A stretch of 64,000 nt of DNA from Psammoneis japonica (Eukaryota): positions 558,001 through 622,000 of the forward strand of contig QPGO01000011.1 of the NCBI GenBank assembly GCA_008632985.1. The letters are read 5' to 3'. The notes under the pieces are model-generated. The model saw only the letters and a program-made list of their open reading frames with translations. It made no database searches and had not been told where the DNA came from. Position 1 is the stretch's first letter. The number at the start of each line of letters is the position of its first letter. Position numbers and translations under genes: made by a program. Shown here one piece after another: positions 4,501 to 59,274 of this stretch.

Positions 4501-4600
4501 GATGAGAGCTGCCAAAATGGTCAGCAGCAAGTTGGCACCAGGCAAAGTCAGCGAAGGAAAGAAGGGTAGATGGCGAAGCAAGGGCGTGACAAAAGGCGGT
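1560..4600. mobile_element. Block A: hypermutated (TpA/CpG-depleted, TpG/CpA-rich) repeat-derived DNA, family unidentified
   Basis: Near-absence of TA and low CG by eye; many overlapping Cys/His/Gln/Trp-rich, Tyr-poor ORFs; contains a MITE-like copy shared with block D. Boundaries approximate. Confidence 0.7.
3714..4076. mobile_element. MITE-like element copy 1 (363 bp), termini GGTGGGAC...GTCCCACC, flanked by CA on both sides
   Basis: 3712-3767 matches 59273-59328 at 53/56 nt; ~3991-4078 matches ~59562-59644; perfect 8-bp terminal inverted repeat. Confidence 0.8.
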
Positions 4601-4760
4601 GTGCCAGCAGGAACAAGCGTCGGACTTTTTCTCAGAGCTTACGTATCGGCTTTAGTCCCCCATGCTCACTTTCTTGGGCGGGCGGCGCGCGCGCTGCGCG
4701 CAGAGCGCGGCGGAAACTTCAAAGTGCGTGATCGATCAAGGCGGCACATTGAACATCACC

Positions 4761-5864: not shown

Positions 5865-6753
5865 CGAATACAGACATTCATAGAACTGGGTGTCTTGCAG
5901 CCATTTTGATTTCCCAAGCACGAGTGCAAGCGTCATGTTTACGATGACAGCGACGGGAAGATGTTTTCTGTCGATGTGCTTCATGATGTTTTTTGTTTCT
6001 TGGAGGGATTATACTCGAACTGCATCAAAGAGCTAGAAAAATTGCGAACTCATGCGAAATTTGGAGAGTGTACGAGGTAAGAAGACATTTTTTTAAGTAG
6101 GCCCTCGATCAGGACAAGATATAGACTTTACCAGGGTACTATGTCTTTATTTTTCGGGCGGCTTCTTTTGACTTCTCGTAAATGCGGCGGTTTTGCAGTG
6201 TTTCAACACGTTAGGACGCTTTGTTGGAATAGCCGACAAGAGAGGCCTGTACAACGCTTGCAGTAGCCTTGTCCTCGTAGGGCGGTGTGGTACCAATGGC
6301 GACTTGACGACAAAGCTCTAGTTAGTTTCTGATGCGTCGAAACCCGGGTGTTCATCATGTAAGAATTCAGGACAGCTGCAAACAAGTAATCCTCTCTGCA
6401 TCATGTAATCTGGACGTAGCCAGCTAGTTCACTGCTACGATGCATCGTCCGCACTGATAACAACGGCGCGGCCCAAACGAGGATGGCAGAGGTACTTCTA
6501 CTACCGGTAGGTCTAGTGCCAGTGGCTAGTTAGTAGGCGGGTCCAGTGGGTTGAAAGCATGGATGATTAGACCTCTGAATATGCATTGAATATCAATTGA
6601 ATCCTCTCTTGTTTCCTCTCTAGAGTGGCAGTGCCCCCAGCAATAATGCACTCATTATTACAAATCCCCGATCCACCATAGTCGGATCATTTTACTCTCA
6701 GTTGACAATTTCCGTAGTCAACGTAGTCAATGGTTTTGTCCACGAGAACAAAA

Positions 6754-9700
6754 TCATCGCTTCTTTCCACCCTTTTTCCCATAATGAGTGCCCCCCTTCT
6801 TTCCGTAGCCTGTTGAATGGCGTCGGTACGGCTTGGGTGGATGTTGTGAGTTTCGTGGTGGTCTACCATTGTACGAGTGCTTTCCACCATAGTAGTGCGA
6901 GGTATGGTAGCCAACCGGTTTTCCTCCATTTTTCACCGGCGTTGGCTTGTAGAAATAGGGATTTTTTTTGTTAGGAGGAACCAATGATGACGATGGAGTA
7001 GCGACGGACTTTTTCAGTTCGGTATTTCCTTGTAAAGGATTTTTCAGTTTGGCGCCTCCTTCCCAAGGCTTTTGTACGTTGGCGCCTCCTTGTGAAGGCT
7101 TCTTCAGTCTGACGCCTCCTTCCCAAGGCTTCTTTGGCTTTGCACCTCCCTGCAAGGGCTTTTTCACGTTGGCGCCTACTTGTGAAGGCTTCTTCAGTCT
7201 TGCACCTCCTTCCCAAGGTTTTTTCGGCTTTGCACCTCCTTGCAAAGGTTTTTTCACGTTGGCACCTCCTTGTGTGGGCTTCTTCAATCTTGCATCTCCT
7301 TCCCAAGGTTTTTTCGGCTTTGCACCTCCCGCCTGCAAGGGCTTTTTCACTTTGGCGCCTCCTTGTGAAGGCTTCTTCAGTCTTGCACCTCCTTCCCAAG
7401 GTTTTTTCGGCTTTGCACCTCCTTGCAAAGGTTTTTTAACGTTGGCACCTCCTTGTGTGGGCTTCTTCAGTCTGGCACCTTCTTCCCAAGGTTTTTCTGG
7501 CTTTGCACCACCCTGGAAAGGCTTTTTCAGTTTGGCCCCTACTTCCCAAGGCTTTTTTGGTTTGGAATTAGGTGCAATGTATTTGTATCCCTTCACTTTA
7601 TTTCCTTTGGGCATTGCATGTTTGCGCATCAAGTGAGCATACGTCCACTTGGCATTGTCTTTCTTTGGTTGCTTTTTCGGGTAGTTACGAATCCCATGAG
7701 AATAGCCGTATGATTGCTTGTTGACTTTGTGTTTGTACACAGGGTGGTATATTTGATGTGGCCTTGAAAATTTTCCTTTCTTAACGTATCCGCCCTTCTT
7801 ACCTTTCTTGCCGTACCCACCCTTCTTGCCCTGAGGTACGTAGTAGTAGTAGTAACCTGGGTTGTAATTGTAACCACCCTTATTCTGCTTCTTGCTGGGT
7901 CCTTTCAACCACGATACAGGTGTAGAAGGCTTCTTAGTAACTGGACGCCGAGTTGGTGTCGTCGGCACCGAAGGTGGTGTTGGTACGCCTGCGTCTGTTC
8001 CTGTAGGTGGTGGTAGGGAGGGTGGAATAATGGGTGCTGGTGTAACAGTCGGTGGGACAATAGGTGCAGGGGTAACAGTCGGCGGGACAATCGTTGGTGT
8101 CGGTGGTGAAATTGTCGGTGAGATTACAGGTGCCTGTGTTATAGTCGGCGGGCTATCCGTCGGGGGTGTAGTAGTCGGAGGGCTAGCTGTTGGTGGTACA
8201 ATTGTCGGAGGGCTAGCTGTTGGGGGTACGACGGTCGGAGGGGTCACTGTCGGTGAGACAACTGGCGGTGGTGTTGCAGTCGGTGGGTTCGGATCAGGGC
8301 TAGCAACAGTAGGAGGGCTTACTGTCGGTGAGTTTGTACTGCTCGGGGGGACCGATTCACGCCCTGTTACAATTCCGGGGATAGATGGGTCGATGTCTTG
8401 TTGGCATGATCTGGCTGCCCCAAAGAACTGACAAGCTCCCGTACACTCGCCTCCCATGAAACATCCACCCCCATCAAACTCTTGAAACAAGCGCAGACCA
8501 CGTCCATTGCATTCGCCAGAAATCTGGTTTTCGACGTAATTATCTGATCGTTGAAGAGATGCGTCATCGCCCACAAAAACCGTTGACTTCGTATCGAACC
8601 CATTGACAAAACAAGACCGTCTAACCGAAACGCTACTCCGCCAAATGGCAAATATGGTTGACTAGCAAAGAAGAAGCAGGTAAGAGAATAGCGATAGTGA
8701 CAATCAATGAGATTTTTTTCAGTCCAGGTTGAATGTCGTGTGGTCTGCTCGAGATTGTCAATCAAAGTACTCACCGTGTAGAAGTTGTTCAATTCGAAAT
8801 TGATATCGACCATTTCGACTACGGCGTCGCCTACTGCAAAAACAAGAGCTCCAATATCGTGCGGATACGGCTGATAGGGAAAAAAATCAGCATGAGGGTT
8901 TTTGAGGAAAGCAGAGAATAACATAAGACCAGGACAACAATCAATGCTACTTACAGATCCTTCGTTGCCAGCAAAAGTGATGTCTTCGAGATACGCAAAG
9001 CCACCATCACCAACGTCAACACCGGTCTAAAGCAGGAAAGGAAATTGTTCGTTTAAGAAGGAGAAACGCATGAAACATGGCAAGCAGATTCTTCGCAACG
9101 TACCCTTAGGTTCTTGTTGTTTTTTATTCTAGCATCAAACAACGTAGCAGAACTCTCGTCGTGAACAAAAACGACGGACCAATCAAAAGGAAAGTCGTGA
9201 TCGAGAACGTCGATTGAAGACAGGTCTGTCTCACTTGTCTTTCCTTCAGTGTAGAAGACTTCCTGTATTTACAGATAGGAGGAAAAGGTACAATGAGCAA
9301 ACCGCGGTAGAGTCCGTTGTTGAGAGAGAAACACGCAACGCTCGGCGCATCCCCATCACATACCATCAAGCTGTCGTTCTCTTTGACGACAACGTCGTGG
9401 GCTCGAACGTAGCCACCACTGGTTGCAAAGGACACGGACTGACAAAAGAGCCAGAGGTGATACAAACTATTTTGAGAGACATTGTCATTACTATTCAACG
9501 AAAGATGGAGGGAAAGTAATACTTACATCCATGTCACAACGTGTAATGGTCGCGTTCAGGAGACTCGATTTGCCTTCATTTCCTGTTGCAATAAACGCCT
9601 TGCATATAACAAAAATCAACAAGAATGAGAAAGACTCCTTCCATCAAATGCAGCCGAGTGCCCGTATCTAAGTAACACTCACCGTTGCGCTGACCCGTTC

Positions 9701-17120: not shown

Positions 17121-19860
17121 CTACGGAACGCCAGCATTGTCCAATCGACTGTGAGCACCAGCAATAGCACTTGAGAATGCGCTCTTTTCACCTCGTGCTC
17201 TTGCTGCTGGTGGGTTCACAGGAGATGGTGGCGCAGGTTCATCGTTGTGTGTCGTCTGCTTCTGAAGACGTGATATGAGTCGATCGAGTTCAGCGTACGG
17301 TTCTTCTTCGTCGAGAGTGGCTACTAGGTCGTCAACGCTTGGATCGCCTTTCACGAGGGATGCGTACTGCGGGATAATGGCAACGTCGATGAGATGGGAA
17401 ACTATAGCGGGAACAACCGAATGCGGGTCCAGAAGCAGAGTAGAAGCATCGACGGGTGTCAGAATTGCTTCGTTCATGCTGGTCATGAGCGCGACCCGAG
17501 CTTCTATTACTCCCTTGCGGCTGAGCTTGGTTTTTTCGTGTGCTTTTTGTAGCAACAAACTTCTGTTGTTCTCATCAGTTTTGCCTTGCTCTTCGTCAGC
17601 GCTTTCGTTACCATCGGCATTGTTGACGGATCGAATAAGAAAATGCTCTTCCTTGACATCCTGTGCATAAAGTTTGATAGCTCGGACCATGGCGATCAGT
17701 TTCTCCGGAATGTCGTATTCTGATTTGGGAGGATAAACGTAAGTTACGACGACGACAAGTGCAGCCGCCGCCAATGTCCACATTACTCTGTATAATATCG
17801 TCACCCCAACTTTGGCCCCCGTCCCAACCGTTGCCTACGGACAACAAGGAGATGTTTTGAGGGATAAGTAAGTCTGCACACCATCAAGGTTCTATCGTAA
17901 GCAGCGAAAACAGGAGACTTACACAAAATACCCATCCAGTGATGAAAAATGAAAAGCCCACGTAGCTTGGTTGGAGTAGCACACAAACGGCGTACGTGTT
18001 GAGACCAAGCAGAATAATTAGAATCGCAGGATAAGAAAAGAGAGGGTAAAGAGCTGATCCCAGGCCGATGCCCAGCAAAGTCCCAATGGTTCGGTGAGCA
18101 ATCTTGTCTAGCGTCGTGGCGCCCGTCGGACCCATGATGAGTGCGACCGTCATTGGGAACCAGTGGCCTGAGGTTCCTTCAAGATAAATGTCCGGTATTG
18201 ACGCCAGACAAAACGCAATGCCGAAACGAAGTGCATAAATTCTGATTGCACCGCCGGGATCTTCTCGTATCTCAAAAATCCTGGACGGGGGCGACGGGAA
18301 TGCGGCCAACAGCCGCCTGGGTAGGCTCCAAAGCGACGAGTAAGGCGGCCATCCCATCTGCTCGGGCTGAATTTCCTCTTGATCAGCAGTATTGAGCGCC
18401 ATTTTTACAGCCTCCTCAATTGTGTTTACTAGCAAATCGACCAGGGAAGGTAACCAGGCCATATTGATGCATCGGTTCTCATTGACAAAGGTGTTATCCC
18501 CGACGTTCCTACAGCTCTGGCAGCAGCAGCAGTTGCTCAGCTCTATTGAAGTGGCTTTGGCCTTGAGCACTGCCGCGGCTTGTTTGACGGCTCTCGGGGC
18601 CTTTACCTCTAGGTGCTTTCGAACAAATGGGGTGTACCTTACAATCCAAGGAAACTGAAACGCCTCTGCGATTCTCCGGCAGGCATAACCCACTGCGAGG
18701 AACAGTTCATGGATTTCCTTTTCATTGCCTTCATAGTTATCGCCAGACTCCTCTTTATTTCTAGTCATGTCATTATTTTCGTCAGCACTGTCATGATTAT
18801 CATCCTCAGGAATCTTGATATGGACGCAATGTTGTATTTGTTGTTGTCGTCTCCGCAACGCGTTCATTTCATACAGGTGCGAGAGACAAAAGGCTGCGGT
18901 TCTGAGGGCGTCGGCTTTATCCATAATCCTCAGCAGCCACTCTCGAGCGTATGAGTCCTCGGTCTTATCGTGGTATATGGCGTCCTGCGTTCTGACAATG
19001 GAGAGAGTCACTCGAGGCACCGGGTACTTTTCTACATGCTTCAGCGTCCCAAAGTGGGCTGCAAAACGCTTCAGATACATCCCAAAGCCATTGTATACTT
19101 TATAGAGGTCCGTTCTGACGGCATCCCTGGTTCCAACCACCTCTGGCAGCAGTGCAAACGCGAGCGACGACGAGGCCCCGGCAAGCGTCCAACTAATGCT
19201 TGTTGCCAGTCCTCCGTACCCGTTTGTGTTGCGATTTACAGCAATGTTGATGGCAAAGAGAGCTGTACCCAGCTTCATTGACAAAAATAGCGTGGGCTCA
19301 CGGGAAAGAGGGGCAAGACCAGACAGAAAGGCCACGAGAAAGGCAAAAATCAAGTTGACTGCTGGGTGCAAATCCCAAATTAACCCGGGCAAGAGTGTCC
19401 CCATAAGCATCACAGTGATGACAGTCAATCCCATGCTTCTAAATCTACGAGAGGCGTTCCCATTGGGATCTGACAGTCCAACGTAAAGGCAACCGAGTTG
19501 AAAGGCGGTAGTGGTTGGATTTCCGATTCCAAGCAAAGACCACTCGAGAATGAGCAAAATCGCCGTGCGGATTCCGGGGACAAACGCTAATTGCGTGTAA
19601 TCAACTTCCCATAACGATCTCCAAAAGGCACGTACGGTTTTTCTGATGAAGGGTCGAATCAATCTCCTTTTCTTTGGTAACAATTCTGCCGAAGTCCGAG
19701 CAGACGACTCGTGCTGTTCTGCATCTGCTTGGGCTTCCTCTGAGCTTTTGCCCGGTACCTTCACCGAACTTGCATTGCTGGTACTGTTCTCGTCGATTTT
19801 CTTCTCTTCGCACATTGTATTTGTTGTGTTTGTTTCATCGTCTCCTGCTGCGGCGGCCAT
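17121..19860 (-). CDS. FUSC/aromatic-acid-exporter-like multi-pass membrane protein, one intron
   Basis: GHWFPMTVALIMGP..KIAHRTIGTLLGIGLG motif; a GTAAGT...CCGTAG intron (~17922-17835) joins ORFs 17884..19860 and 17121..17804. Confidence 0.8.
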
Positions 19861-20608
19861 TGTCCATCGTTTGGGTTTTTACTGATTGGAGGTTTTTATT
19901 ACAGTAAGTACAGAGTTAAAGAGTTTATGTAGAGCGGAAGGGAACAGCAGAAGGAGGCACGGAAGTACAGTAGCTGTAGTGGCGGCAGAGTAGAACGGGC
20001 GCAAAACGCAGGACGTAGGGCGTTTGGCAGAGGGAGTGGGAGATGAAGGGGCGGGGCGAGCGGGGAGAGAAGTAAAATCGGAGAGCGTGCATGGAGAGCG
20101 AGATGGAGAACAATGCTCTGCGTCGTGTTACCGGTATGGGTTTGAGTTCGTCTTCAAAGCGCGTTTTTGACGCGAGCATGCAAGACGATGGGCGCAGTCT
20201 CACCACAGGCTCAGGTCTCACGATCGCGATGAGCGAGCGATTGGGACGAATGATGAATGATGCCATCACTTTTAAGATTTGTTTCATTCATTTGAGTGCA
20301 AGCGTGATGACAACACTGAACAACATTGCAACACACACTCAATGAAATGCATCGATTGACAACACATTTCATTGATGCTTTGTTGTTGGGCTTGCACATT
20401 GGCTGGCGCACTGCCTGGAGTTGCTTTTGTGCTGTTGCTTCAGAAAACAAACATTGGGGCAGAGAGTGGGGAGCAGGAAGCAAGGGGAGGGGGGGGAGAG
20501 AAGCCAATGGGGGTGTTTCCCCTGGCCCACCCTGTGGACAAATCACCCTTGTTTCGTGCTGGTTTTTCTGCTGTCAAATGGCCTGTGTTTTGGTTGTCTG
20601 CCGACTTG

Positions 20609-20610
<2 letters not shown>

Positions 20611-20643
<33 letters not shown>
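20611..20643. repeat. (CTG)11 microsatellite
   Basis: Directly visible. Confidence 0.95.
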
Positions 20644-20644
<1 letters not shown>

Positions 20645-23524
20645 GCACCAAGGGCCATTCTTCTTGTGGGCCAAGCTGGTTGGAACACAGACAGATGTGG
20701 CAGGTGAGGATGGCCCAGGTCAAAAACACAGGACCCCTGCATTGTCACAACTTGTCGGCAGCCAGCTGAGCTTGTTTCCTTTGTTCTTTTTTTGCACCAG
20801 ATGCATCATGTGGAAATTTGCACAACTTTCTTCTTGTTGTGCACTGGGTGCTTTGCACACAACAAAATGGTTAGAGGGCTTCTGTTGCAGCAGTGGGTGT
20901 GCCTCTGGAACAGATCGTGGCCTCAGAGAAAAAGGCAAGATGTGGGTGGCCAGTGTGCTGAGAAACTTGGGGTGGAGAGAGAGCAACAAGAAGGAGCGCA
21001 GCCAGCACACCAGAGCAGCAGATCACAAAAACACAAACATGAGCTCCATTTGATGCTGAGCTTTGAAGATGACATTTGTGGCATTTCCATTGTGTGCATT
21101 TGGAAACTTTTGTTTTTGCTGCGCCAGCAACCCACACTGCCACCAGATTTTTTTGTTTTCAGTGAGACACAAAAACAAGGCAGAATCTCACAACAAACAA
21201 AAATTTGGGCAAGAGCTGGGTGGCAACACATTTCAATCTCTTTTACAATGATTTTTGTCAGTCAATCTTCATGCTGCTCAACGCAGTTGACAACGTTGTT
21301 TGAGTGCCACATCCACAGAGCAAAAGACAAAATGAAACATGACAGCTTGTGTGCAGAGTCTCCAACAATGCAGATTGCTTGCAAGGCAAACATTGTGCTT
21401 GTTTTGTGCCATCCTTACAAATGCAAGCCACAAAGCATCCAGAGCAACAAAGGCAGTGGCAAATGCAGAGCCAGCGATGTTTGCTCTTTCTTTTTTCTGG
21501 TCTGTGGTGAGGGGCAGCTGCTGTGGCCAATGTTTGCAAGAATTCACACTCCTGTGCCTGCCTGCAATCAAGCACAAGTCAACCACAAGTGCTCTTCATT
21601 CCTAAAAGCAGCAACACCCACATGTTGTTGTCAAGCACGCACCTTCTGTTTTGCAAACATCCTCATTCTCATCACCACAAGGCAACAACAGTTGAGCCAT
21701 CGTGGGCATTGAAAATGTCATGGTCATGGTGGTTTGGTGCATCCTCAGATTCACACAAATTTGTCTCAATTGTGCACAAAGCCAAAAATGTTGAAAACAC
21801 AAAGTGACCTTTTGGCTTTGTTTTGGGAGCCACCTGGCGAGAACCCAGCAGTGGATGCAAGCAAAAATCTAGACACCAGTTGATGATTGAATGGACAGCT
21901 GTTGGCAATGTCACAAGTGTGAGCAAGGTCAACAGCACACATTTGATTTGTTTGAGGTGAGCAGCGCATGCTGCAGTGGCAGCACAGAACAACCTTTGAG
22001 CCAATTTCACTGTCAGTGTGAGATGCAGAGGCTCCATGTGGCAAAATCCATGCTCTTGTTTCACACAGGTTTTCCTGCTTTGAAAGACAATTTCATGTTT
22101 TTTGTGGTGTTGCACCAGCACTGCCACCACCACTTTCTGTGTGGGGCTTGCAGCAGGTCATCTGAACACTCTCCTCTCCTTGCATGTCTCTCCTGTTCTG
22201 AGAGCAATTGGGGGCTTGCAGCCAAATTTTTGGCAAGTGGTTTTTGGACAGACAACTGCTGCTTCTCCTTGCCCTCAAATTGACAATTTTTCAGAGCTGT
22301 GTTGCCAACTTGTGAGCGCTCCTCCTGCTGCTGCTGCTGCTGCTTCTGCACCAAGGGGGCATTTCTGTCAACCAAGCCAGCCACAGTGCACAAGTTGCAG
22401 TGGCTGGCCATGTGGCAGTGCAACAAGCAAGCAAGACAGCCAATGACCGAAACAAACAAGACAACCACCAAATGAGAGCATGACAACCAAGACAGAAGAA
22501 GCACAATTTTTGGCTGCTTGCAGCAGCACGCAAGGAATGTTTTGGGGCACTTGTGATTGAAAAATGTGAGAGCAAGGTTGCTGAGCACTGCATGGGCAAT
22601 GCTGCGCGGCCCGCCCGTGTGTGGCTGGAAACATGATGGAAGACAAAATTTGGAAACATTTGAGTGCTGTCAAATTGTCCGCCAGTGCAGCACCAGTCAC
22701 CTGCTGATGCCATGCATGGGTTGGCACACAAACAGCCAGAAATGGTGCTGGCTCAGGGGCAATGGCTTAAATGCAGTGTTTTTCTACATTGGCGGGACAA
22801 ATTGCCAGCTGGCTGAGCACTTTCAGCTTTCCCTTTGCACTTCATTTTGTGCCAGACATGATGCATGGGGAAATCTGCATGCCATCAACAACTTTCCTGC
22901 ACACACACCCTTGCAAACTACAAGAAATGCAGTGCTGATGTGCTGCCAAAATCAACTGCCACATGAGGTGATTGCTGCACACCAGCACAGCAGCCGCACC
23001 AGCCAAAACATGTGACAACAGATGCAAAGCACAGCAGCAGTGTGTGGAAGGACCCACAAGGGACTTTGTGGCACAGCAGCACATCTGGGACACCAACAAT
23101 CCAGGTGTCGCACTGGCCATCAAGATTTCTTGAAATGAAGCCCGACATTTTCTCCCTTCAATCCAAGATCGTGCTGATTTGACAAGTCAGCTTTTCTGAA
23201 ATGTTCAACAACAAACATCCATGTTCCTCAATTTGACCATTTGCCCCCCCATCCGACAAGCCTCATGTGTGTGTTTAATTCTGTTTTAATTTCTGGATTG
23301 TGTGTTAATCAACTTTCTGGATCAAAATCGCCGCCCACATCCGTCAATCTAGATTCTAATTGTTTTCTCAATTTTCTCTCCCTGCCCATTCCATCCTTCC
23401 TCCCCGTCCATCCGCACATTGCATCTCTGTGTTTCTGCCCTCACCACATCCCCAAGTGATTGTTGCTGCACCCACTGTTTGCTTTCGATTCTCTTCTCAA
23501 CTCCTTTGTCTGTGTACATCGGCC

Positions 23525-24436
23525 ATGTCGTCCGATGGTCTTGTTTGTCCATGGTGCAAACAAACCGGTTTCTTTTCCGAACGTGGCCTCAGCAGGCACA
23601 TCGCAACTGGCTGCCTCCGTTCCGCCGTTTCCACCAAGTCTTTCAGTTGTCCTCATTGTGGACAACATGGATTTGACTCTGAAAACAACGTGCAGTGTCA
23701 CCTGTCTCGGCACTGCACCGCAGCATCTGGTCTCCATCCCCCATTGACACAGTTGCGCCGCACAACCCAATCATCTTCTTCATCCGGCGGAACATCTCTT
23801 TCCTCTCATCCTCTGGATTCTGCCTCCGTCGGCTCCCTTGGATCCAACACCAACAAACCCAAATGTCCCCATTGCCGTGTTCCCTTTTCCAACATCGCCC
23901 TTCATCTACAGAAGTGCTTGCCCTGCCATGAAAAAGAGGAAATGTCCCTTTGCCTGCATGCCGCATCTTCTGCTGCCGCCCATGCACTTCCCCCTCCAGA
24001 CGATGACCATGATGAATCACTGGACGACCATGATGATCCTGCTGGGTTTGGTTTCTCCGATGACGAACCCCCTCCTCCCCTCCCCAAAGTCCTTTGGAAT
24101 CCAGCTCCATCTCCTCCCACACCAACGGACAATTCTTCTCCAGCTTGTCCTCCCTCTGCGGAAGTGGACTGCGCCCACCCTCCGTCAGATGCTCTGGTCG
24201 ATTGCGCTCAGCTGCCAACTTTGCTGCCGCTGGTGCAGCCTCCCAAAATGTCCGCAGATTTGTTTTGTTTGCAGATGATGGTGTGTCCGCCCTTGGAGAG
24301 GACAGTCGTGTGGATGTTCCAAAGTTCATTGGAGCCGACCGTCGCGATGGCAGTTGTGGCCCCCCCTCAATTTCCCATCCGATGGAAGATCCTGTTTCCT
24401 CCCTCGATCAACCAGCCTCCTTCAAAGCCAATCTAA
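23525..24436 (+). pseudogene. Element-borne multi-zinc-finger protein (C2H2/C2HC-like) with acidic/Pro-rich tail, probably truncated
   Basis: CPWCKQTGFFSERGLSRHIATGC, CPHCGQHGFDSENNVQCHLSRHC and CPHCRVPFSNIALHLQKC; no Tyr in the 358-aa ORF. Confidence 0.65.
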
Positions 24437-25102
24437 TGTAGCTTGGGTGTACCGGCCATTTTGCAAATTCACCAAGGTGGTTTGGGTTGTGTGCATTGCT
24501 CTTCCCACTGCTCTCGAACATGAAGATTTTCGCATCAAACATCATCAGCATGATGCCACGGATTGAGTGATCTGTCAAACCACTTTTTTTGAGTGACAAA
24601 CAAACATGACCGCGCTCATTTGCCCAACATGTGGGAGAACAACAGAGCCTAATTTGGTGTCAAGGCTGTTTTCTATGCCAAACGGGGCCAGATGCACCGG
24701 CGGGGGACAACGCCCAGATGGATCATTGGTCAACACTGCAGATTGAGTCGGGTGGAATGCCATCGGGAGAGAAGCACGATGTGTCAGACGGAAAAGAGAT
24801 TCGTTGGTTCCATTTCAGCAATGTGGCCTAACAGGCAAGGGATTTGGCATGATTCTTTGGGGTGGGATCATTTTGAGGTTGTTGTTCTGCAAAGGGAATG
24901 ACAAGGCTGTGGAAGACAAGAAACAGAGTCACCCAAACAATGTCTGTTGCTGCTCAACATGAGTTGATCAGCAACTTGGACAAGATTCAGGAGAATGTGG
25001 TTTGCTGTGGGAGATGCACTTTGTGTCACATGCTGTGCAGGCCAGCACCAAGTGCACAAGTAAAAAAGTGGTGCCAAAGGCATGCACTGCCATGTGTGTG
25101 TG

Positions 25103-25240
25103 TTGACAAAAAACTGATGCCAAATTCTTCTGTGACAAATGTGTTTGACAACAGAAAAGTGATGCCGAATTACTTTGTTAACAAATGGTTCTAATGACAA
25201 AAAAGTGATGCCAAATTACTCTGTCAACAGATGGGTGCAT
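25103..25240. repeat. Three imperfect ~45-bp tandem repeats inside the TIR element
   Basis: tgacaa..aa[c/g]tgatgcc[a/g]aatt..tgt..aca[a/g]atg occurs three times. Confidence 0.8.
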
Positions 25241-25455
25241 CACCAAAAAAGCAACAGTTTGTTTGTGGTGCGGAATGTACGGTGGATGGAAGCTTTTGCT
25301 TTGTGTCTGCCGCTGTGGTGATGTGAAAATATCTCACATCATCACTGACAGAATTGTGAGCAACAAAATTGTTTTCTGTGCTTTTGAGATGGCTAGGATG
25401 ACCGATTTAATGAGATCATTCAGCAAACAGGATCGACGAAGATCACATCACACGT

Positions 25456-25592
25456 GACCATTTGCAAAAAAAACGTCTGTGATGCACCCGACAGACAGAC
25501 TGCCGTTGTCAAAACATCACATGGGACCATTTACGAAAAAAACACCCGTGGTGCCCACAACAGATGGACTGCCATTGGCAACACACATTTGG
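25456..25592. repeat. Two imperfect 69-bp tandem repeats inside the TIR element
   Basis: Units start gaccattt at 25456 and 25525. Confidence 0.8.
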
Positions 25593-26089
25593 CGAGAAAG
25601 CCGTTTTCATTGCAAAGCAATGGGTGCAGACTTTCGCTGCATTGGGTCTGTTCCACTCAGAGAAAAAGACCAGGTGCCATTTGATTTGGCAGAACAGGCA
25701 ACTTCAGAGAATGGCACGGAAGTGTTCTGTGAACGGATGCCGGAAATTTGCCCGTTGGCCAATGACGTCATGCCAGAAACATGGCAAGTTGCTGGCACGC
25801 CCGGGCGAAATGAAATCTCATGTCGTCAAGAGCAAGAAGGTGGGGTCCAAAGAAAGAGAGCACCAGGAAAGAAAAAAAGGCTGCTTGCAAAAATTCAAAA
25901 CACCACCACCCCTGCTCAACAAGACAACAACGCTTGCAAACAAGGCACCAAGTGGGAAGGGAGAAAAGGAATGACACTGTTTTGTCGGTGAGTTCGCCAT
26001 CAACAAAAAGGAAAAGGCGGAAGGTGTTGGGTTGGCAGAAAAAATGTTGGAGCCCAATTCCTGGCTTTCCCCTGGCAGGTGATTTAAGC

Positions 26090-26570
26090 AGAAAGACATC
26101 CCGGCACACAGCAGCAAACGCTCCTGCTTCAAGTTCAAGATCCAACTTCTGGTCAAAGGGGGAAATTCATTGCGATTGCGTGGAAACAAAATCATCACCT
26201 GGTGACAAAATTTTCACCATGTTTCTGTTCCTTGATGACACGACGGAGCATGATGGTGCAGTGGAGATGTGGCCGGACAGTTGTGAGGCAACATTGAATG
26301 AGAAGGAACTCAAAAAGACAATTGGTCAGGTTGGGTTTGGAAAAACAATTGCTGGTTGGAGAAGCAGGCACTGCATTTGTTTTTGATGCAAGAATGTTGC
26401 ACCGAGCTTTGCCCAACAAAATGAATTCGGATCGAAGGAACATGGCATGTCCAGTCCACAATTTCGACATGGCAAGCATGCGAACATGGCAAGCGTGTGA
26501 ACAAGCATGTGTTGGAATGCAAAACCAGCGAAGCAGTGAGTTGACATGGGCACAAAGTGGGTTTGTGTAA
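26090..26570 (+). pseudogene. Element-borne PhyH-type 2OG-Fe(II) dioxygenase, frameshifted and mutated
   Basis: GEIHCD (HxD)..IFTMFLFLDDTTEHDGAVEMWPDS in ORF 25820..26386 continues after a frameshift as GEAGTAFVFDARMLHRALPNKMNSDRR in ORF 26298..26570; same motif layout as the host PhyH gene at 4761. Confidence 0.75.
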
Positions 26571-26638
26571 AGGGCCAATTGACAATGCATTGCTTGCACA
26601 GACGACAGTTACATCACAAACAAAGTGAAATTGCAAAG

Positions 26639-27604
26639 TCACCCTCTTTTGGCAGGCTTGAATTTGCGTTTGATGTCAGACCCCAGGTCGTTCCTAGTGG
26701 AATGCCCAGTCTCCACGGCATCATCTCTTTTCTTGGTGTGCTTGTGAAGTGGGTGCCTGTCGACACTGCCTCCCCATGACAGATCGTCTGGACAGGCAGG
26801 AACAAAGAATGCTTCGTGCCTCCATTTGTGCATGTGAACACAAAACATCATGTCCAGTGAAATGACAATGGCACCTTCAGGACACTCGTTGGACAGCATC
26901 TCCTCGAGTTGGTTCTGTGTCGCATTGTTGTCAAAAAGCATTCGCCCATTGCAGTTGTTGAAGAAAATCTTTAAGTTGTTCAGACGGCACAACCGACGAA
27001 CAGCATCGTCTTTGGAGAGGAAGTCCTGATTGATCAGGGTCGGGAAGCGACTGGCATTGTTGTGCCATGTGGCATCACACCACTGAGAGCCAAGATCATG
27101 ACGGGGATGGTGGAACTCAATGCTGTGGGCATTGCAGGCAGGAACAAGCAGACGACAGGCAATCACAAAACCGCCAACACCACCACCAACGTCGAGGAAA
27201 TTAAAACGGCTTCGAATTTGTGCCGCAAAGAGAGAGGGGTTACAAACAACCTTGGTGGAGAAGGCAAAGCTTGCCGCACCACCGTGTGATTCCACACCAC
27301 CACCAGCAAAACGACCAATTTGATCATCAATTGGCGGCATGTGATTGCAACAGAGGGAACACACGCTCCTGTGACGGGAACGACTCACAACAACCATGTC
27401 TTGGTGACAATGACACACTTCAGTGGACATTAAAGTGGATTGGAAAATTTGGGCAACAGAGAGAGCAACTGGACAAACATGGCATCGGGGAAGCAGAGGG
27501 AATGACCCATTGAGACAGGGACAAGAAATGGGATGTTTGACACGACTTGACACACCAAAGGAAGCAGATGTTGCATCAATGAGGAAGCGCAATGCATGCA
27601 CCAA
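26639..27604 (-). pseudogene. Element-borne class I SAM-dependent methyltransferase, DOT1 (H3K79)-like
   Basis: FLDVGGGVG (motif I), SIE..R, QDFL, IFFNN and PEGAIVISL appear in DOT1 order (DLGSGVG, GIE, DF, IFVNN, GxRI[V/I]S); no Tyr in 321 aa. Confidence 0.65.
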
Positions 27605-27916
27605 TTAAGGAGATACAACACATTGTTTGGCATTGATTTGAATGACATGGCAATCTTCATTGGTGCATTGGATTGGCTAAAAAAGGTGCACAATTCAAAA
27701 CAGCAAAACGTTGATAGAAATGCAAACATGGGGTTGGGAATGAGAACTCAAAAATGACACAAAGACCTGTTTGAATCAAGAGAGGACACGCGAGCAATGA
27801 CAAAACCGAGAAAATCACATGCAAAAGTGCGTTCTTTTTGCAACTTACCTTTCATAAAGCGACAGGAAAGGATGGAAGTTCCAAAAAAGAGGAAGCCATT
27901 GGGAAGGTAAAAAAAA

Positions 27917-29211
27917 ATGGAGGATGCGGTTCTCACAGGAGCGACGGAGGGAGGAAGTGTGACTTCCAGTGGCAAGTGAGATTGAGAAAGGACATGACAA
28001 AGAATTGCTGATGAACTGACACAATTGTTGGATTGATCTGTGTGGTGTCACATGAAGTCACCATGAGTCCTGCGGTGGTGGCCTTGTTGCATGCACAAAG
28101 AAATGAACATGGGGAATTGAACAGATTCCAGCATGCAGGTGGCGACTCAATTTCAGTGGTGACTCCCACAGAGGGATGTCTTGTGTTGGATCGTGCACCG
28201 GCAGTGAGCAAGAAATTGATGGCATCGATGTTGACTGAGGTTGTCAATGAGAGTGTTTGGCCATGTCGCAAGTTCACAATCTTCGATCATGAACTCACCG
28301 TGGGAGGAGCTTGCATGAAATTGGTTCTGCAGGAGCCAAGGAGCATGGTGTCTTCACTGGAGAAGTTCTGGGAAGAATGCAAAGAGGTGTTCAGGACCAA
28401 ACTCAACCGAAAGAGGAATGATGTGCAGGACAACATTGGGAGGAGAATGACAGGTGAGCAGATGTGTGCGTGCCAGTGATTGTGTTGGAGGCGATTGTCC
28501 AACGGGATGAGTGTCTCTTCCTTTGCCATTGTCTGTGCAGTTGCTGCTTTAGAGGGATCACTGGTGGCTTACGAAGACTTGACAAAGGAAAGAAATGAGA
28601 AGGACACATGCGTGTGGTTCTTGGAAACTGTGGCGCCGACGGTGGTGGGACAAGCGCAGTTTGGTGGAAGCACAACCGACATGCTTCAGGAATGGCTTTC
28701 AGTTTCGTCGGAGGTGTTTGCTCTGCCAGTGTGCTTGAACTGCTGCAACAAGGTGAAGGACACGGCAGAGAAATTGGAAAAGGAAGAAAACATTGCAAGG
28801 AGAAGAAAGCCAACTGTGAAAGATGCTGCTCCTGCAAAGCACACAGCACAGGCAGCGGGGGAATCAGCAAAGAGGAACCAAGGATGGAGCAAGGAGGGGA
28901 TCGAGAAGTGCAATGATCTGCATCAGTGGGTGGTGAAAGACAGAGAGAACAACCAGGGATTCGGTGCATGGTTCAAGGAGAGAAGGCGAGAGAAGACAAA
29001 CTTGTCTCAGGAGGAAAACAAGAAACGCAAGAGAGAGGAAAAAAGAAAGGAGAGAGAGGAAGGATGGGCGGCGCCAATGGGAGAGGACCTGCCATTGCAG
29101 GCGGTGGCTGCAGGCAACGGAGCGGCAGCAAATGCTGCAATGGCCACCAACCAAACTGGTGTGCAAACTCAATTTGAGACAAACAATGATGTCTGGACAA
29201 GTGAAAATTAA
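27917..29211 (+). pseudogene. Element-borne hypothetical protein resembling accessory ORFs of diatom DNA transposons
   Basis: ORFs 28033..28479 and 28480..29211 are joinable through an intron-like GTGAGCA...TGTGCAG; motifs LSVSSEVFAL and GWSKEGIEKCNDLHQWVVKDRE, with C/H where Tyr is expected. Family recall unverified. Confidence 0.5.
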
Positions 29212-30047
29212 AAAAAACATTCTGCGACATGGTTCAGATGCAACAACGTGTGGCAATTGGGAGTTGGATTTGAAAACGGCGCAGCAATGAGATAAAATGT
29301 AGGACGAGTTAGTGGAAAAGGAGGGTGGATTGCAAGCAGCAACATTTGTGTCAAAAGAACGAGAAACCCCAAATGTCAATTGGGGTGCAGGTCTGCATTG
29401 TGTGAAAGGAATGATCGCGCTTAAAAGTGAGAAGCGATTTGGGTTTTAGAAGCTTATAAACTCATGCAGTTCTCATGTCACATTCAAGGAGAGAATTGGC
29501 TCATGAGTTGACAAAAATCTGGCATTGAAGTCAAGAAATGCCCAGATTGTGGCAGACGGTCAGACCCAGATCATTGGCGTCCCAGATGCAGATGTGCCTC
29601 TTTTGAAATGGAGGCAACGGCATTCAAGCTCTCTGTTGATTTTTTGTTGAAACAATCAGGAGGCACGTGGCATTCACCCTACAGCAGCCTAAACGGCTCG
29701 CAGTGAGCGAGAACTCAACGGACACATAGGACACAAGCGAATTTGCTTCACATATTTTAATTGATGGATGCATAGATAAATGTTGGTGATTATATTGAAT
29801 GTCCATTTTCAATATCCCGCATTTTGGATTTTGAGAGAAGCCTTGAATTCTCGTCACAAAATCACAGCGATCGCACAATCTTTTGGCGGTTTCTGGGTTC
29901 TCTTTTGTTACTCTAGCTAGGGCCATACCCTCTTGGTTGTACCGATACCTTTTAGCTCTGTCAATAGCTGTCTCATCAGTGAGTATAGCATCCAGATTCA
30001 TTGTTACCCGCGACAAGCAAAGGCCTTGTTTTCCAGCACCGCTGCTC

Positions 30048-31874
30048 ATGTACGTCGTGCAGATGACTTCTCGCTACGTTTACGCGCTTGCTTTCCTTCT
30101 CGCCTTGGTACTTGTGTTGCTTGCTTTCGACGGGGTGTTTCCCCCCGCCGTTTCCGTCAAGCTTCGAACCCGGTCGCGTGAGACGCGTCGATCTCTTCAA
30201 GGATGTCAGGATAGTCCATCAAGGAAACTGATTTCTGAAGCGGGTTTCGTATCCTGTCACGCTTTCTCGCAGCTCCCGGCTTCCACAATAGCAAAAACCT
30301 GCGAATCCCAGGCTCAAGCCCTCCAGAGTTGTCCCAGAACGTGCGGTGTGTGCGACCGCGTCCTATCGTCGGTTCCAAACGATTCACTTGGAACATGGGG
30401 CGAAAAGTTCGACATGGAAATCATCCCAATTCACGTAATGATTCTACCCGATGGAAAAGTACTTTCGTTTGGGGCCAACAAGGCAGGAAGCAGCAGGAAT
30501 CCCGAAAATTATTATGAAATCTGGGACACAACCACGGGCGAACATGCGCTTGGAGTCAATCACGTCCGGTACTCACACGAAACAGAAGTCAATATCTTTT
30601 GCTCGACGCTGTCCATTGATGTGACAACAGGCAATGTTCTGATCATTGGTGGCACTGGAGACATTATCAACGTTGTCGGTAGTGAGTTTGAATCCAATGG
30701 CTCAAACGGAGTTTTGGAGTTTGATGTCACAACGTACGAGATGCGAAAACACCCCCTGGGGGACATGCGGTATGCGCGTTGGTACGCCACCAGTATCAAC
30801 ATGCCAGATGGACAGATCTTTGTTGCGGGTGGAAAAGACGAGCGACTCCTTCCATTCGCTAGTTCCATCCCTGAAATCTGGAATCCCACAACGGGGTGGC
30901 GCATTTTGTCGGATGCGGATGTTCCTGCCATGAAATCAATGCTCTCATATTTTCTCTTTGGACAGACTGCATGGTGGTATCCTCATGTGTTTGTCAACTC
31001 AAGCGGGGACATCTTTCTCATGATTGCCGACAAGATTAATGCCGACGTGTACTGCGTAGGCGTGGAAGGACTTGGATCGATTAAAAGGGTGGCAACCCGA
31101 CCATTCGACTCTCACAAACTTGGACCGTCCATAATGTACGATGTGGATCAGGTTGTTGTGTTGGACATGTATGCCAATCTCTGGACTGTGGATATTTTTG
31201 ATGCATCCCAGCCGGTTTTTACAAAAAGGGCGCGTCTCTCCAAAAAACGAATCAATCCCACCATGTACCTCCTGCCGGATGGTCGCGTCATGATCAACGG
31301 TGGCTCAGAAGAGGAGACTCATGACGATGTGGGCTCCACTGAATTTTCATTAGAACGGGCCGTGCGCTTCGTTGAAATATGGGATCCGGTTGAAGACACG
31401 GTGTTTAAGGGACCAGAACAAGAAACAGCGCGCCTCTACCATTCATCTGGTCTCATCCTGCCCGATGGGAAAATATTTTCGGCGGGCGGAGGAGCACCAG
31501 GCCCCATACAGAATTCGAATGGACAGATGTACTATCCCGGCTTCTTGTATGATCCCGAAACTGGCGAAGAGGCATCACGTCCTCTGATTGAAACATGGCC
31601 CGAGACAATTCTAGCTGGCGACACATTCATCATCACTGTCGCTGATCCGTCAGTTATTGCCAAGGTGACTGCCACGAAGCCTGGTTCGATGACGCACGCA
31701 CGTAATGCCGACGCTCGGTGGCTCAATCTAGACTTCCAGATTGATGGAACGAGCATCACTGTGTCCACTCCTGGTCCGAACATCATGATCGTTGGTGTAT
31801 GGTATTTGAACGTGATCGACACCAGTGGAGTTCCATCTCCTGCACGTCTCTTTATGGTACCCCTACCGGAATAA
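30048..31874 (+). CDS. Copper radical oxidase (galactose/glyoxal oxidase, CAZy AA5-like) with kelch repeats and C-terminal DUF1929-like domain
   Basis: N-terminal hydrophobic anchor; NIFCS (Cys), ARWYAT, WWYP (Tyr), RLYHSS (Tyr-His) and GSMTHA (His). Start at 30048 or 30063. Confidence 0.88.
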   Translation: MYVVQMTSRYVYALAFLLALVLVLLAFDGVFPPAVSVKLRTRSRETRRSLQGCQDSPSRKLISEAGFVSCHAFSQLPASTIAKTCESQAQALQSCPRTCGVCDRVLSSVPNDSLGTWGEKFDMEIIPIHVMILPDGKVLSFGANKAGSSRNPENYYEIWDTTTGEHALGVNHVRYSHETEVNIFCSTLSIDVTTGNVLIIGGTGDIINVVGSEFESNGSNGVLEFDVTTYEMRKHPLGDMRYARWYATSINMPDGQIFVAGGKDERLLPFASSIPEIWNPTTGWRILSDADVPAMKSMLSYFLFGQTAWWYPHVFVNSSGDIFLMIADKINADVYCVGVEGLGSIKRVATRPFDSHKLGPSIMYDVDQVVVLDMYANLWTVDIFDASQPVFTKRARLSKKRINPTMYLLPDGRVMINGGSEEETHDDVGSTEFSLERAVRFVEIWDPVEDTVFKGPEQETARLYHSSGLILPDGKIFSAGGGAPGPIQNSNGQMYYPGFLYDPETGEEASRPLIETWPETILAGDTFIITVADPSVIAKVTATKPGSMTHARNADARWLNLDFQIDGTSITVSTPGPNIMIVGVWYLNVIDTSGVPSPARLFMVPLPE

Positions 31875-32226
31875 GCCAGAAGCTAGCTGGATGAAAAATA
31901 GAACAGTAGAGATACTTTATAATAAGCCGACTTGTTGGTTATTAACTTGGGACCTATTCATAGTCATGAAAAGCTAGCGTAGTCGTCATGAGCTGTACCT
32001 GGTACGGCCGTCTTCAGGTTTGCTCTGCTCCGCCTGTGAGCTATTGGAAGATTGGTGTATTCGCCAACAAAGACAAGCTTGTGAGTATTCACAGCTGTGT
32101 CATCACCGTGACTACGCGGTTCATTCTTTTGTCGACCCCAGCCTGCAGCTTTCTCTAGCTACAGTATGTGTCCATCTTCAAATCTACCTCGTCTAACGTG
32201 CGGGAGCCGTGCAAGACAACAAAGCT

Positions 32227-43459: not shown

Positions 43460-44287
43460 ATGGCTCTTAGTGATAAAGGACAAAATATTGCAAGGTGAGA
43501 TCTAGAGAAATGATTGTGTGGAGACCGGGGTTTGCTTTGTTATCGTTTCCTCATGATATCTGTTTGTTTCTGAATCGCGGGTTTGAATTCTGTCTACCAG
43601 GTGGTTCATCCTTGGTCTTACCGTACTATCATGGATCTTTATCATCGTCACTCTCTCCGACTGCTCCTTCATGAAGGATGATTCTATCGGCATTTCGGGG
43701 TTCGAAGTCTCCTTTGGACTTTTCAGCGGTCAAGCCGGCGGCAGCAGCTGCGAAAAGTACACGAGCACCGGATTGGATGCATTGGGCTCAGCCTTTAAAA
43801 CGGGAAGGGCCTTTGGAGTCTTGGCGTCTCTAGCCATTAGCTTTGCCATGGTCATCATCATTTGCGTCCAGGTGGTCACCATCACGAATGAAAATTGAAG
43901 AACATGCTATGGTTGGCGCTCAAGGTTCTCTTTGCCATTGGACTTCTTTGCCTCTTGCTGACGTTTGTGGCGTTTGCCTCGGATATTTGTGACACTATTA
44001 GCTGCGGAGTCGGCGCTGCAAGTGGCTTGGCCATTTTCAATGTGTTTATTCTTATCGCTCTGTGCGCCCTTTCGTGCATGGTCCCTCCTCCCGACAAGGC
44101 TTGCGTGTCTTGCGGCGGTTCTTCTGGCGACGAAGAAACTGGAGGAGTCAAGGATTCTCCAGAGCAAGCTGCTGGCGAATCTACCAAGGTTACAATTACA
44201 AAGAGACCGGATGGATCCAAGGTGACGACCAAGGAAGTTACTCATCCGGATGGGTCCAAAACCATCACGGAAACTATTGAAGAGTAG
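43460..44287 (+). CDS. Small four-TM (claudin-like) membrane protein, one intron and one probable 1-nt frameshift near 43893
   Basis: ATG at 43460, GTGAGA...CTACCAG intron, hydrophobic segments with DCSF, FGLF and KTGRAFGVLA, tail DGSKTITETIEE. Confidence 0.6.
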
Positions 44288-44689
44288 ATCCTCGAGTCAG
44301 TCTGTGTTTTTTGTTACGTGTGTGAGTGAGATTTTAATATGATACTGTGCTCAATCAGAAAGAAGATCGGGAGGGAAGAAGGTGTGCCTTCTTGTAGATG
44401 TCCCATTGTATGGCTGCGTCGAAACTTATGGTAGGAAACTAGCTTTTGAATGTACTATTGAGAAGTCTCGTACGTAGCAGTAGGACTTCAAAGATGCACA
44501 TTGCTTGAGTGGTAGCCACCGAGCTACTAGCTAGGGCGTGCTCTAGAGCTAGATGCTAAAGCTCCTCGTTGCCTCGTTAGTTGTGAGGCGAGCGCGCATC
44601 ATTTACACTACGCACCTTGCAACGCGTTTGTTGACACGAACAAATTTGCATGTAACTCCAGAGTTTCGCATTGTGTGCATTGAGTGAAT

Positions 44690-48960: not shown

Positions 48961-49094
48961 CAGTCAATCGTCAATCCGTAAAAACTGAAAACAGGCAGGA
49001 AACATCATGCTGTATTCGCCGCGCGCGCTGATGTCCGCTATATGCCGCTGTGGTCTGCAATGAACTTTTGGGTTTCTTCTGCTTTTCGTGAAAG

Positions 49095-59014: not shown

Positions 59015-59115
59015 NNNNNNNNNNNNNNNNNNNNNNNNNNNNNNNNNNNNNNNNNNNNNNNNNNNNNNNNNNNNNNNNNNNNNNNNNNNNNNNNNNNNNN
59101 NNNNNNNNNNNNNNN
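59015..59115. other. Assembly gap (~100 N)
   Basis: Run of n characters. Confidence 1.
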
Positions 59116-59274
59116 GGGGGGGGGCATGTGCATTTGTGTGGTTCTGGTTGGAGCATGTGTGTGTGGAAAAGAAAGCCAGCATGACCACATGGTCAGCAAT
59201 GCACAAGGCAAGCTGTGTGCCAGTCATTGTGAGGCAAGTTGGGCTGTGGCCACAACAGACGGGTTCCAGTCCCA

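Follow-up and report, generated by a model that had tools for sequence, protein, structure and literature searches.

Results

Location, boundaries and copies of the element

The window analysed in this study is a stretch of 64,000 nucleotides (nt) from contig QPGO01000011.1 of Psammoneis japonica, and the element described here lies at its positions 23082-29588, where two terminal inverted repeats (TIRs) enclose a zinc-finger open reading frame (ORF), the remnant of a 2-oxoglutarate (2OG)-Fe(II) dioxygenase gene, a DOT1-like methyltransferase gene on the minus strand, and a fourth gene composed of two exons. This segment most likely belongs, as one dead copy, to a multicopy family of class II (TIR) DNA transposons in a eukaryotic alga. 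A previous sequence-only reading of the same DNA had proposed a transposon with 25-nt TIRs and CA flanks at this position, and our analysis supports that proposal, given that the TIRs fall at the edges of an independently delimited repeat and enclose DNA of high sequence depth.

The copy evidence comes from the contigs of the one public sequencing run found to contain the stretch (X1), mapped onto 19000-32000 at a likeness of at least 80%. This run has a 0.40 share of the words and is probably the window's own sample; its summed contig depth is a proxy rather than a count of copies, and other organisms in the sample may contribute contigs to it. Read in this way, summed depth was 1980-5147 in all 14 bins of 23340-29415 and 36-163 in the flanking bins apart from one spike at 19868-20301, which corresponds to about 30-85 times the flank depth over the whole unit in this one sample, and the two edge bins showed the intermediate depth expected for edges at about 23082 and 29588. 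The left unique contig stops at 23109, that is, 28 nt inside the element, and the right unique contig (29559-29863) starts 30 nt inside it; a k=31 unitig would break at such points on meeting a shared repeat. Moreover, six records carry unrelated sequence directly before 23082 (agreement 0.46). The ends of the unique contigs, the diverging records and the depth profile therefore place both limits of the repeat unit at its inverted repeat. Thus, 23082-29588 is one unit of a multicopy repeat family, whose flanks differ among copies and whose internal parts were amplified together. Because depth is high over every one of the four genes, these were amplified with the family, and the objection that the cargo might be a one-off capture does not hold. 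No further copy was detected by blastn elsewhere in the window.

Internally deleted derivatives of the 6.5-kb unit are also present in X1. One joint (26951>27367) contains 13 filler letters and skips 415 nt inside the methyltransferase gene, and another (26935>28904) skips 1968 nt, both at single-copy depth. Abortive gap repair after the excision of a DNA transposon would leave deletions with filler of this kind. The unit at this locus had itself been read as a probable internal-deletion derivative, which our data do not support: the 6.5-kb form predominates, the deletions seen derive from it and no longer relative was seen. In the 3' non-coding part of the element (29163-29526 in the window), about 340-350 nt are missing in some copies (joints 29163>29516 and 29189>29526), and five X1 records run into A-rich sequence after 29186; therefore, at least one subfamily has a different 3' region.

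The left TIR arm (23082..23106, plus strand, pair I2) has 25 nt with contig edges nearby, and it pairs with the right arm (29564..29588, minus strand), next to which the unique contig starts at 29559. The arms match exactly at 20 of 25 positions (80% complementary) and at 25 of 25 when only purines and pyrimidines are distinguished. By itself the TIR is unremarkable: it ranks second among the 46 inverted pairs of 22000-31000, and in 4 of 100 shuffles its 15-mer was hit twice with at most two mismatches. It gains significance because it is located at the edges of an independently defined repeat: an inverted match of 20/25 occurred in 3 of 199568 random position pairs 6.5 kb apart, or about 1.5e-5 for two fixed positions. 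All five mismatches are transitions, confined to three dinucleotide sites (CA/CG once and CA/TG twice). If an ancestral TA (or CG) decays independently in the two arms, CA will come to face TG at corresponding positions, and the ancestral TIR was therefore probably perfect over 25 nt. Besides, a gapped alignment of the ends revealed a second, subterminal inverted block (23141..23169, plus strand, with its partner at about 29517-29545), and these subterminal blocks share CATTT..CTTCAAT.C.AGAT some 60-90 nt from each end. Matches of the TIR 15-mer in IMG/VR (at least 120, single and scattered) were at chance level for about 14 specified bases and were not used.

Reading the sequence directly, the element is flanked by CA on the left (23080..23081) and on the right (29589..29590). 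Direct repeats longer than 2 bp fail at these flanks, and the over-representation of CA in the block, with an observed/expected ratio (o/e) of 1.5-2.0, weakens the match. The flanking CA may be a 2-bp target-site duplication of a decayed TA, although 2 bp in CA-rich DNA are not evidence.

A short repeat outside the element, at 19868-20301, has a depth of 826 compared to about 57, with an opposite-strand joint at 19911/20008. It lies where a host gene on the minus strand (17884-19878) meets the TG/CA-rich block, and it could be the terminus of a different, older element into or next to which the 6.5-kb element inserted.

The DOT1-like methyltransferase

The gene at 26639..27430 on the minus strand encodes a predicted class I methyltransferase of the DOT1 superfamily (METHYLTRANSFERASE), with an open frame of 263 amino acids (aa) and no tyrosine, and it is convergent on the dioxygenase gene across a gap of 69 nt. 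Queried alone with phmmer against PDB, the protein had a DOT1-type chain as its best match, at an E value (0.25) that is not significant by itself, and a word-based protein search yielded 292 candidates, none at E<=0.01; word-based searches detect just relatives of similar length that share 5-residue words. An exhaustive HMMER search of 1.84 billion representatives returned 26 relatives at E<=1e-3, six of them at E<=1e-10 and the best (E 3.1e-22) with 36% identity over residues 42-235. With these 26 representatives among 1.84 billion, the family is small and separate. When the relatives were compared with Pfam, DOT1 was matched at E<=0.01 in 7/26 and its cutoff reached by 4/26, while 4/26 showed just weak matches to other methyltransferase families and 15/26 matched no family.

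The family alignment was built from the window protein and 21 of the 26 relatives (22 sequences), leaving out those that matched in part (P0012, P0017, P0019, P0021, and P0026). All sequences of this alignment share G82 and N159, and at least 90% of them keep G50, G84, E105, R110, N158, Q172, W203, W219, and Y231. The window methyltransferase retains G82, N158, and N159, matches 41 of 57 consensus columns, and its gene covers the homologous core (residues 31-245 of the relatives) with both start and stop present. Searching PDB with the 22-sequence profile, the top 20 distinct sequences were all methyltransferases of histone H3 lysine 79 (H3K79), at E values from 6.4e-10 to 5.6e-7, and the first other protein followed at 1.2e-6; matches included trypanosome DOT1A, a bacterial DOT1L-like enzyme, human DOT1L, and yeast Dot1. 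In the HMMER profile alignment, GGE.SF, FVDLGSG.GQ, G.E, GDFL, and IF.NN align with the motifs of human DOT1L, VNN included, and motif I, the acidic post-I residue and the NN motif, whose Asn would have a catalytic role, find their counterparts in the PDB chains of human DOT1L.

The predicted fold points in the same direction. An AF2 model derived from the family alignment (pLDDT 79, pTM 0.77) was compared with known structures using Foldseek, and all rows listed to rank 48 were DOT1-type (E 9e-10 to 1e-7). VIA-align superposed model residues 7-242 on residues 100-326 of DOT1L chain 7xct_K with Z 19.5 over 210 residues and a root-mean-square deviation of 2.9 A; this DOT1-type fold takes in the C-terminal strands beyond the Rossmann core. 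Non-DOT1 methyltransferases reached Z 17.7 or less with 154-160 residues aligned (154-159 for the best), and the margin over other class I enzymes is modest. The closest structures overall were DOT1L, yeast Dot1, trypanosome DOT1A and a bacterial DOT1L-like enzyme. Identity to solved DOT1 structures is 15-17%, nothing in the protein aligns to DOT1L residues 1-99, and about 45 residues of low pLDDT precede the first motif. In a viral fold library, generic methyltransferases were matched at E of about 1e-6, weaker than the DOT1 matches in PDB, with a Hyperionvirus DOT1-domain protein at rank 4, and a search of IMG/VR with the methyltransferase alignment gave 345 candidate stretches, among which no relative was confirmed. 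Taken together, the family profile, the modelled fold and the motif alignment with DOT1L indicate that this protein is a short member of the DOT1 superfamily and not a small-molecule enzyme. The DOT1 order of motifs that the sequence-only reading had recognized was thus confirmed and reinforced.

Genomic context of the methyltransferase relatives was obtained with a 6-sequence alignment, which located five metagenome loci encoding relatives with 30-35% identity, surrounded by 1-8 kb of flanking DNA. A tblastn comparison of the element ORFs of at least 40 aa with these loci produced nothing but methyltransferase matches. The neighbouring genes include those for a chlorophyll a/b-binding-type protein at locus L001 and a LIM/Costars protein at L002, and the dinucleotide composition of all five loci is ordinary. 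In view of such neighbours and composition, the relatives look like normal algal genes, and the methyltransferase of the element was therefore probably acquired from such a host family. Along with a weak Atlas lead to diatoms, these neighbours are the indirect signs by which the analysis assigned the host to the algae, a diatom being plausible. Three relatives (P0003, P0004, and P0006) have about 600 aa, and proteins of this kind are encoded at L002 (1-1707) and L005 (327-2264); they share a conserved C-terminal extension with a second Rossmann-type motif (EFGAGKG) and weak matches to other methyltransferase families, which suggests a tandem double-methyltransferase architecture in algal metagenome contigs. 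At L001, a 1141-aa open frame (3429-6851, minus strand) for which no Pfam family was found lies head-to-head with the closest methyltransferase relative.

The putative dioxygenase remnant

The broken gene for a predicted PhyH-like 2OG-Fe(II) dioxygenase (25483..26570, plus strand) contains a TGA at 25972, and its frame is shifted by single surplus bases at 26053 and 26313. The contigs of other copies lack the base at 26053 in 1636/1636 of the depth and the base at 26313 in 728/850, and the removal of both leaves 25483-26567 as one frame with the single TGA at 25972. The restored frame contains, in this order, a zinc-finger-like CxxxGC...C..HG at the N-terminus, the basic stretch KRKRRK, and then IHCD, FLDD..DG...WPDS, and LHRALPN.....R; assigned by eye, IHCD followed by LHRALPNKMNSDRR would correspond to the HxD...H iron triad and a basic residue for 2-oxoglutarate. 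Consecutive fragments of the gene gave collinear Pfam matches to 2OG-FeII_Oxy_3 (E 0.02; 16.3 bits, cutoff 27) over the HxD region and to PhyH (PF05721; E 0.023; 15.4 bits, cutoff 22) over the C-terminal His/Arg region. Approximately one match at E of about 0.02 is expected by chance across the 67 ORFs; two collinear matches to one superfamily would be unlikely to arise by chance, in our judgement rather than by a computed P value. The zinc-finger-like motif matched Zf_WRKY19 with an E value of 0.13, and nothing among the Pfam matches pointed to TET/JBP or AlkB. Overall, the dioxygenase of the family was probably once intact and PhyH-like, and its basic stretch and zinc finger suggest a nuclear protein, whereas in this copy the gene is a pseudogene. 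The PhyH-type dioxygenase proposed from the sequence alone is thus supported less firmly than was claimed, by two collinear matches below threshold and by the HxD...H...R pattern, and this copy has no intact gene. A tandem array of about four copies of a 46-nt unit (25062..25251) occupies the spacer between the zinc-finger and dioxygenase genes, and another array has two copies of a 69-nt unit (25445..25585).

The zinc-finger gene and the fourth gene

The zinc-finger ORF (23525..24436, plus strand) encodes 303 aa without tyrosine and has three N-terminal CxxC...H...C motifs followed by a Ser-, Asp/Glu-, and Pro-rich region. The motifs conform to C-x2-C-x(9-12)-H-x(3-5)-C (Cys2-His-Cys) in one frame, two of them reading CPHC, and the Pfam family zf-C2H2_4 was matched at E 0.0073 with 17.4 bits (cutoff 27). 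Since the mutation bias inflates Cys and His, by turning Arg codons CGY into TGY and Tyr codons TAY into CAY, the zinc fingers were tested by simulation, and three same-frame motifs within 450 nt appeared in 1 of 300 Markov-1 simulations with the dinucleotide content of the element. Chance is thus an unlikely source of the triple zinc finger described previously, and the fingers are probably real. Five contigs of other copies have an extra C after 24158 (563/1501 summed depth). Similarities of 0.88-0.90 to C2H2 clusters in the Atlas give a weak lead below the evidence level, and the best Atlas value of the fourth gene (0.83) is likewise below it.

The further ORF noticed on the plus strand proved to be a gene with two exons, at 28063..28453 and 28541..29211, separated by a phase 1 GT-AG intron of 87 nt (28454..28540; GTGAGC...polypyrimidine...TGCAG). 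The spliced gene is a continuous 353-codon frame ending in a Lys/Glu/Arg-rich tail, and the unspliced sequence has one TGA, located inside the intron. No family was found for this gene in Pfam, including exon 1, or in NCBIfam, and the word-based search with exon 2 gave 1034 candidates and no relative. A single-sequence AF2 model of exon 1 was poor (pLDDT 55.5).

Decay of this copy and the TpA/CpG mutation pattern

The window has about 48% G+C and several blocks with extreme dinucleotide bias. Between 20 and 30 kb, the o/e values are 0.35-0.54 for CpG, 0.08-0.22 for TpA, and 1.5-2.0 for TpG/CpA, compared to about 1.0 for CpG and 0.4-0.75 for TpA where the window is of ordinary composition. Considering all biased blocks (2000-4000, 19900-29600, 44000-50000, and 58000-62000), the ranges are 0.10-0.54 for CpG, 0.05-0.36 for TpA, and 1.5-2.06 for TpG/CpA. 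Among 90 ORFs of the other TG/CA-rich blocks, Pfam revealed no transposable element (TE) domain and just a host amino-acid transporter at one block edge. Repeat-induced point mutation (RIP) of fungi creates TpA, unlike the pattern found here, and no description of a two-dinucleotide (TpA plus CpG) pattern in repeats was found in open-access full text or bioRxiv.

Conversion has turned the TpA and CpG of this copy into TpG/CpA. The ORFs of the element contain one Tyr in 1252 residues, compared to 3.0% and 3.3% in two flanking host genes and 1.4-5.6% in the 26 methyltransferase relatives. Every Tyr codon of the window methyltransferase is gone: the near-invariant Tyr231 (20/21 relatives) is a His (CAC), the consensus Ile121 is a Thr (ACA), and His and Cys are raised (6.5% and 5.3%, compared to 3.3% and 2.2%). 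As 41 of 57 consensus columns are otherwise kept, the methyltransferase was a good member of its family before the TA-containing codons were converted. With its tyrosines lost and its dioxygenase broken, this copy therefore encodes nothing functional and is a relic. TAA and TAG are rare in the block (67 of 337 stop triplets on both strands), and long open frames consequently occur in non-coding frames too; ORF length was not used as evidence. Neither the Tyr-free relic ORFs nor the ease with which long ORFs arise in TA-poor DNA had been noticed in the sequence-only reading.

The copies represented in X1 differ mainly by transitions, with 689 transition and 224 transversion places (A>G 186, G>A 179, C>T 165, T>C 159, and 17-38 for each transversion type). 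In the adjoining single-copy DNA at 20.3-23.08 kb, all 13 listed differences between the window and X1 (20344-23014) consist of CG/TA on one side and TG/CA on the other; ten involve CG, two involve TA, and one is an adjacent TG/CA pair (23013-23014). The changes occur in both directions and are therefore no one-way basecalling artefact. This suggests that the mutation process is recent or ongoing and extends beyond high-copy repeats.

Discussion

Our results favour, with moderate confidence, a non-autonomous cut-and-paste element that was mobilised in trans and carried four genes, functional at one time, before TpA/CpG decay inactivated it. Under this explanation, the transposase would have been supplied by an autonomous relative recognising the same ends, and insertion may have produced a 2-bp, TA-derived target duplication. 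The genes would have been complete and active when the family amplified. To judge from its motifs, the methyltransferase would transfer the methyl group of S-adenosylmethionine to an amine of a protein, the most likely target being a lysine in some nuclear or chromatin protein, and the basic stretch and zinc finger of the dioxygenase would place its action in the nucleus as well. The two enzymes might then have acted as a chromatin writer and an oxidative eraser at the element's own copies, or they may have been passengers; that the pair benefits the element seems to us doubtful rather than likely.

Several observations weigh against this explanation. No transposase or recombinase was found in 67 stop-to-stop ORFs of at least 60 aa (Pfam, E<=0.1) and no transposase family in 17 ORFs compared with NCBIfam, in agreement with the sequence-only reading, and no integrase or reverse transcriptase family was detected in the same scans; transposition is therefore inferred from structure alone, and the element is filed as non-autonomous or of unassigned superfamily. 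The putative target duplication has just 2 bp (CA/CA) in CA-rich DNA, and X1 documents repetition within one genome and no independent occurrence. The Pfam match of the methyltransferase to DOT1 (PF08123; 14.9 bits, E 0.019) is below the cutoff of 23, as are both dioxygenase matches below theirs; phmmer against PDB found no relative of the dioxygenase, its best match being a cullin at a meaningless E of at least 0.28, and the word-based search with the dioxygenase fragment gave 70 candidates and no relative. A 254-aa ORF lies antisense to the zinc-finger gene, showing how cheap long ORFs are and that open frames provide no functional evidence. Additionally, the five loci of the methyltransferase relatives, without other cargo and beside ordinary algal genes, fit a captured host gene.

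This last point leads to the most serious competitor of a trans-mobilised element with functional cargo, a Pack-type passenger capture in which a non-autonomous TIR element took host genes by chance and amplified them without the genes ever serving it. We regard this as quite possible, if somewhat less than probable. It would account for the missing transposase, for the intron kept in the fourth gene, as expected from capture at the DNA level, for a four-gene combination seen nowhere else and for relatives that stand in DNA of normal composition without other cargo at 5/5 metagenome loci, but just 1-8 kb surround those relatives, which makes the cargo missing there weak evidence. Classical Pack elements typically carry fragments, whereas the cargo examined here looks like whole genes, with a start and stop around the methyltransferase core and with spacers and tandem arrays of their own, and all but one of the four products look nuclear or chromatin-related, a more coherent set than random capture would bring together. 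If the element was instead autonomous, the 353-aa protein or the zinc-finger protein would have to be a novel or diverged recombinase. Two genes of the element could be assigned to no family, the high copy number was reached as a 6.5-kb unit and zinc fingers are common DNA-binding modules of transposases; we nevertheless consider it unlikely, given that no DDE, HUH, or tyrosine-/serine-recombinase signal appeared in the 67 ORFs at E<=0.1, that the C-terminal half of the fourth protein is of low complexity and Lys/Glu/Arg-rich, and that most of the zinc-finger protein beyond the fingers is rich in Ser, Asp and Pro.

The sequence-only reading had gone further and suggested that the element carried its own chromatin kit, with the DOT1-like writer and the dioxygenase countering silencing or the mutator at its own copies. 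What the family looks like today argues otherwise, since it was not protected and this copy is hypermutated. The DOT1 N-terminal domain is missing, the model aligning to DOT1L 100-326 and no further, and the dioxygenase resembles PhyH/2OG-FeII_Oxy_3 and not TET/JBP or AlkB. Moreover, H3K79 methylation had been treated as a mark of active chromatin, which does not hold as a general rule, because the account available for brown algae, another stramenopile group, describes a repressive DOT1/H3K79 pathway (PMC13076208). Membership in the DOT1 superfamily, the HxD...H...R pattern with its basic stretch and zinc-finger-like motif, a depth by which all copies appear to carry both genes, and the precedents described for TE-borne modifiers, namely TET/JBP in fungal DNA transposons (PMC12730594) and VANC (PMC5735166), keep the proposal in discussion, yet we find it improbable. 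Very unlikely, in our assessment, is a dispersed segmental repeat or an integrated virus-like fragment with incidental inverted ends. DOT1 homologues are reported from giant viruses (10.1101/2021.11.30.470311), the Hyperionvirus protein ranked high in the viral fold library, no transposase is present and the target duplication is ambiguous; however, the sharp edges coincide with the inverted repeat at both ends, the deletion derivatives lie inside a constant frame, none of the 345 IMG/VR stretches was confirmed as a relative and the viral folds matched were generic methyltransferases, weaker than the DOT1 chains of PDB. A non-autonomous element with once-functional genes thus remains our preferred explanation.

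Should the most far-reaching version be true, a TE-borne module composed of a DOT1-type writer, a nuclear dioxygenase and zinc-finger targeting would have enabled dozens of copies in a stramenopile-like alga, which were then permanently silenced by a host process that converts TpA/CpG to TpG/CpA and is still active, as all assembly-versus-read differences in the adjoining single-copy block bear its signature. We rate this scenario as decidedly improbable; it would amount to an arms race, with a histone writer/eraser pair on the side of the TE and, opposing it, a RIP-like mutator whose specificity for two dinucleotides would be new. The mutation pattern, in which TpA and CpG give TpG/CpA at sites that are polymorphic between assembly and reads, may be the larger finding. 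It also carries a warning for annotation, since TA-poor, TG/CA-rich repeats generate cheap long ORFs and Cys/His-rich 'zinc fingers', and real genes in them lose every tyrosine.

TEs with epigenetic enzymes, such as fungal TET/JBP genes and captured chromatin readers, are rare and reveal which host silencing layers matter. In open-access papers and bioRxiv, we found no report of a TIR family moving a DOT1-superfamily methyltransferase together with a 2OG dioxygenase, nor any published example of a DNA transposon with a DOT1-like gene. Among known systems, fungal DNA transposons of KDZ/Plavaka and other lineages are described as encoding TET/JBP dioxygenases (PMC12730594). The resemblance consists of a class II family amplified with a 2OG-Fe(II) dioxygenase besides or instead of a mobility gene; the element examined here differs in its PhyH/2OG-FeII_Oxy_3 signals, the missing transposase, the algal host and the DOT1-like methyltransferase, and no TET/JBP or KDZ transposase family was among the Pfam matches of the 67 ORFs at E<=0.1. 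In Arabidopsis, VANDAL21 (Mutator-like) elements are reported to carry the anti-silencing protein VANC (PMC5735166). They likewise are TIR elements with extra genes that may act on the epigenetic state of their own copies, which in our case is conjecture, and no homology was seen, none having been tested for. VANC is a sequence-specific DNA-binding protein and is not known to be an enzyme, and VANDAL elements have a transposase gene of their own.

Pack-MULE and Pack-CACTA are reviewed as gene-capturing non-autonomous elements (PMC13317346). Like the element of this study they are TIR-bounded, lack a transposase, contain host-derived coding sequence with introns and reach many copies, while the present element appears to carry four whole genes with spacers and not fragments. 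As for the methyltransferase, it shares the fold and motif order of DOT1/DOT1L, and GGE, DLGSG.G, the acidic post-I residue, DF, and (V/F)NN align with human DOT1L; it differs in its length of 263 aa, in having no counterpart of DOT1L 1-99, in an identity of 15-17% and in being transposon-borne. Expanded DOT1 subfamilies are described in brown algae, where the repressive pathway mentioned above was reported (PMC13076208). Finally, orchid Ty3/Gypsy elements with an acquired ALKBH-type demethylase domain (PMC9289625) offer another example of a TE with a fixed 2OG-Fe(II) oxygenase module, although in those retrotransposons the domain is fused into the polyprotein, whereas the element of the present study is a DNA transposon in which the dioxygenase was a separate gene.

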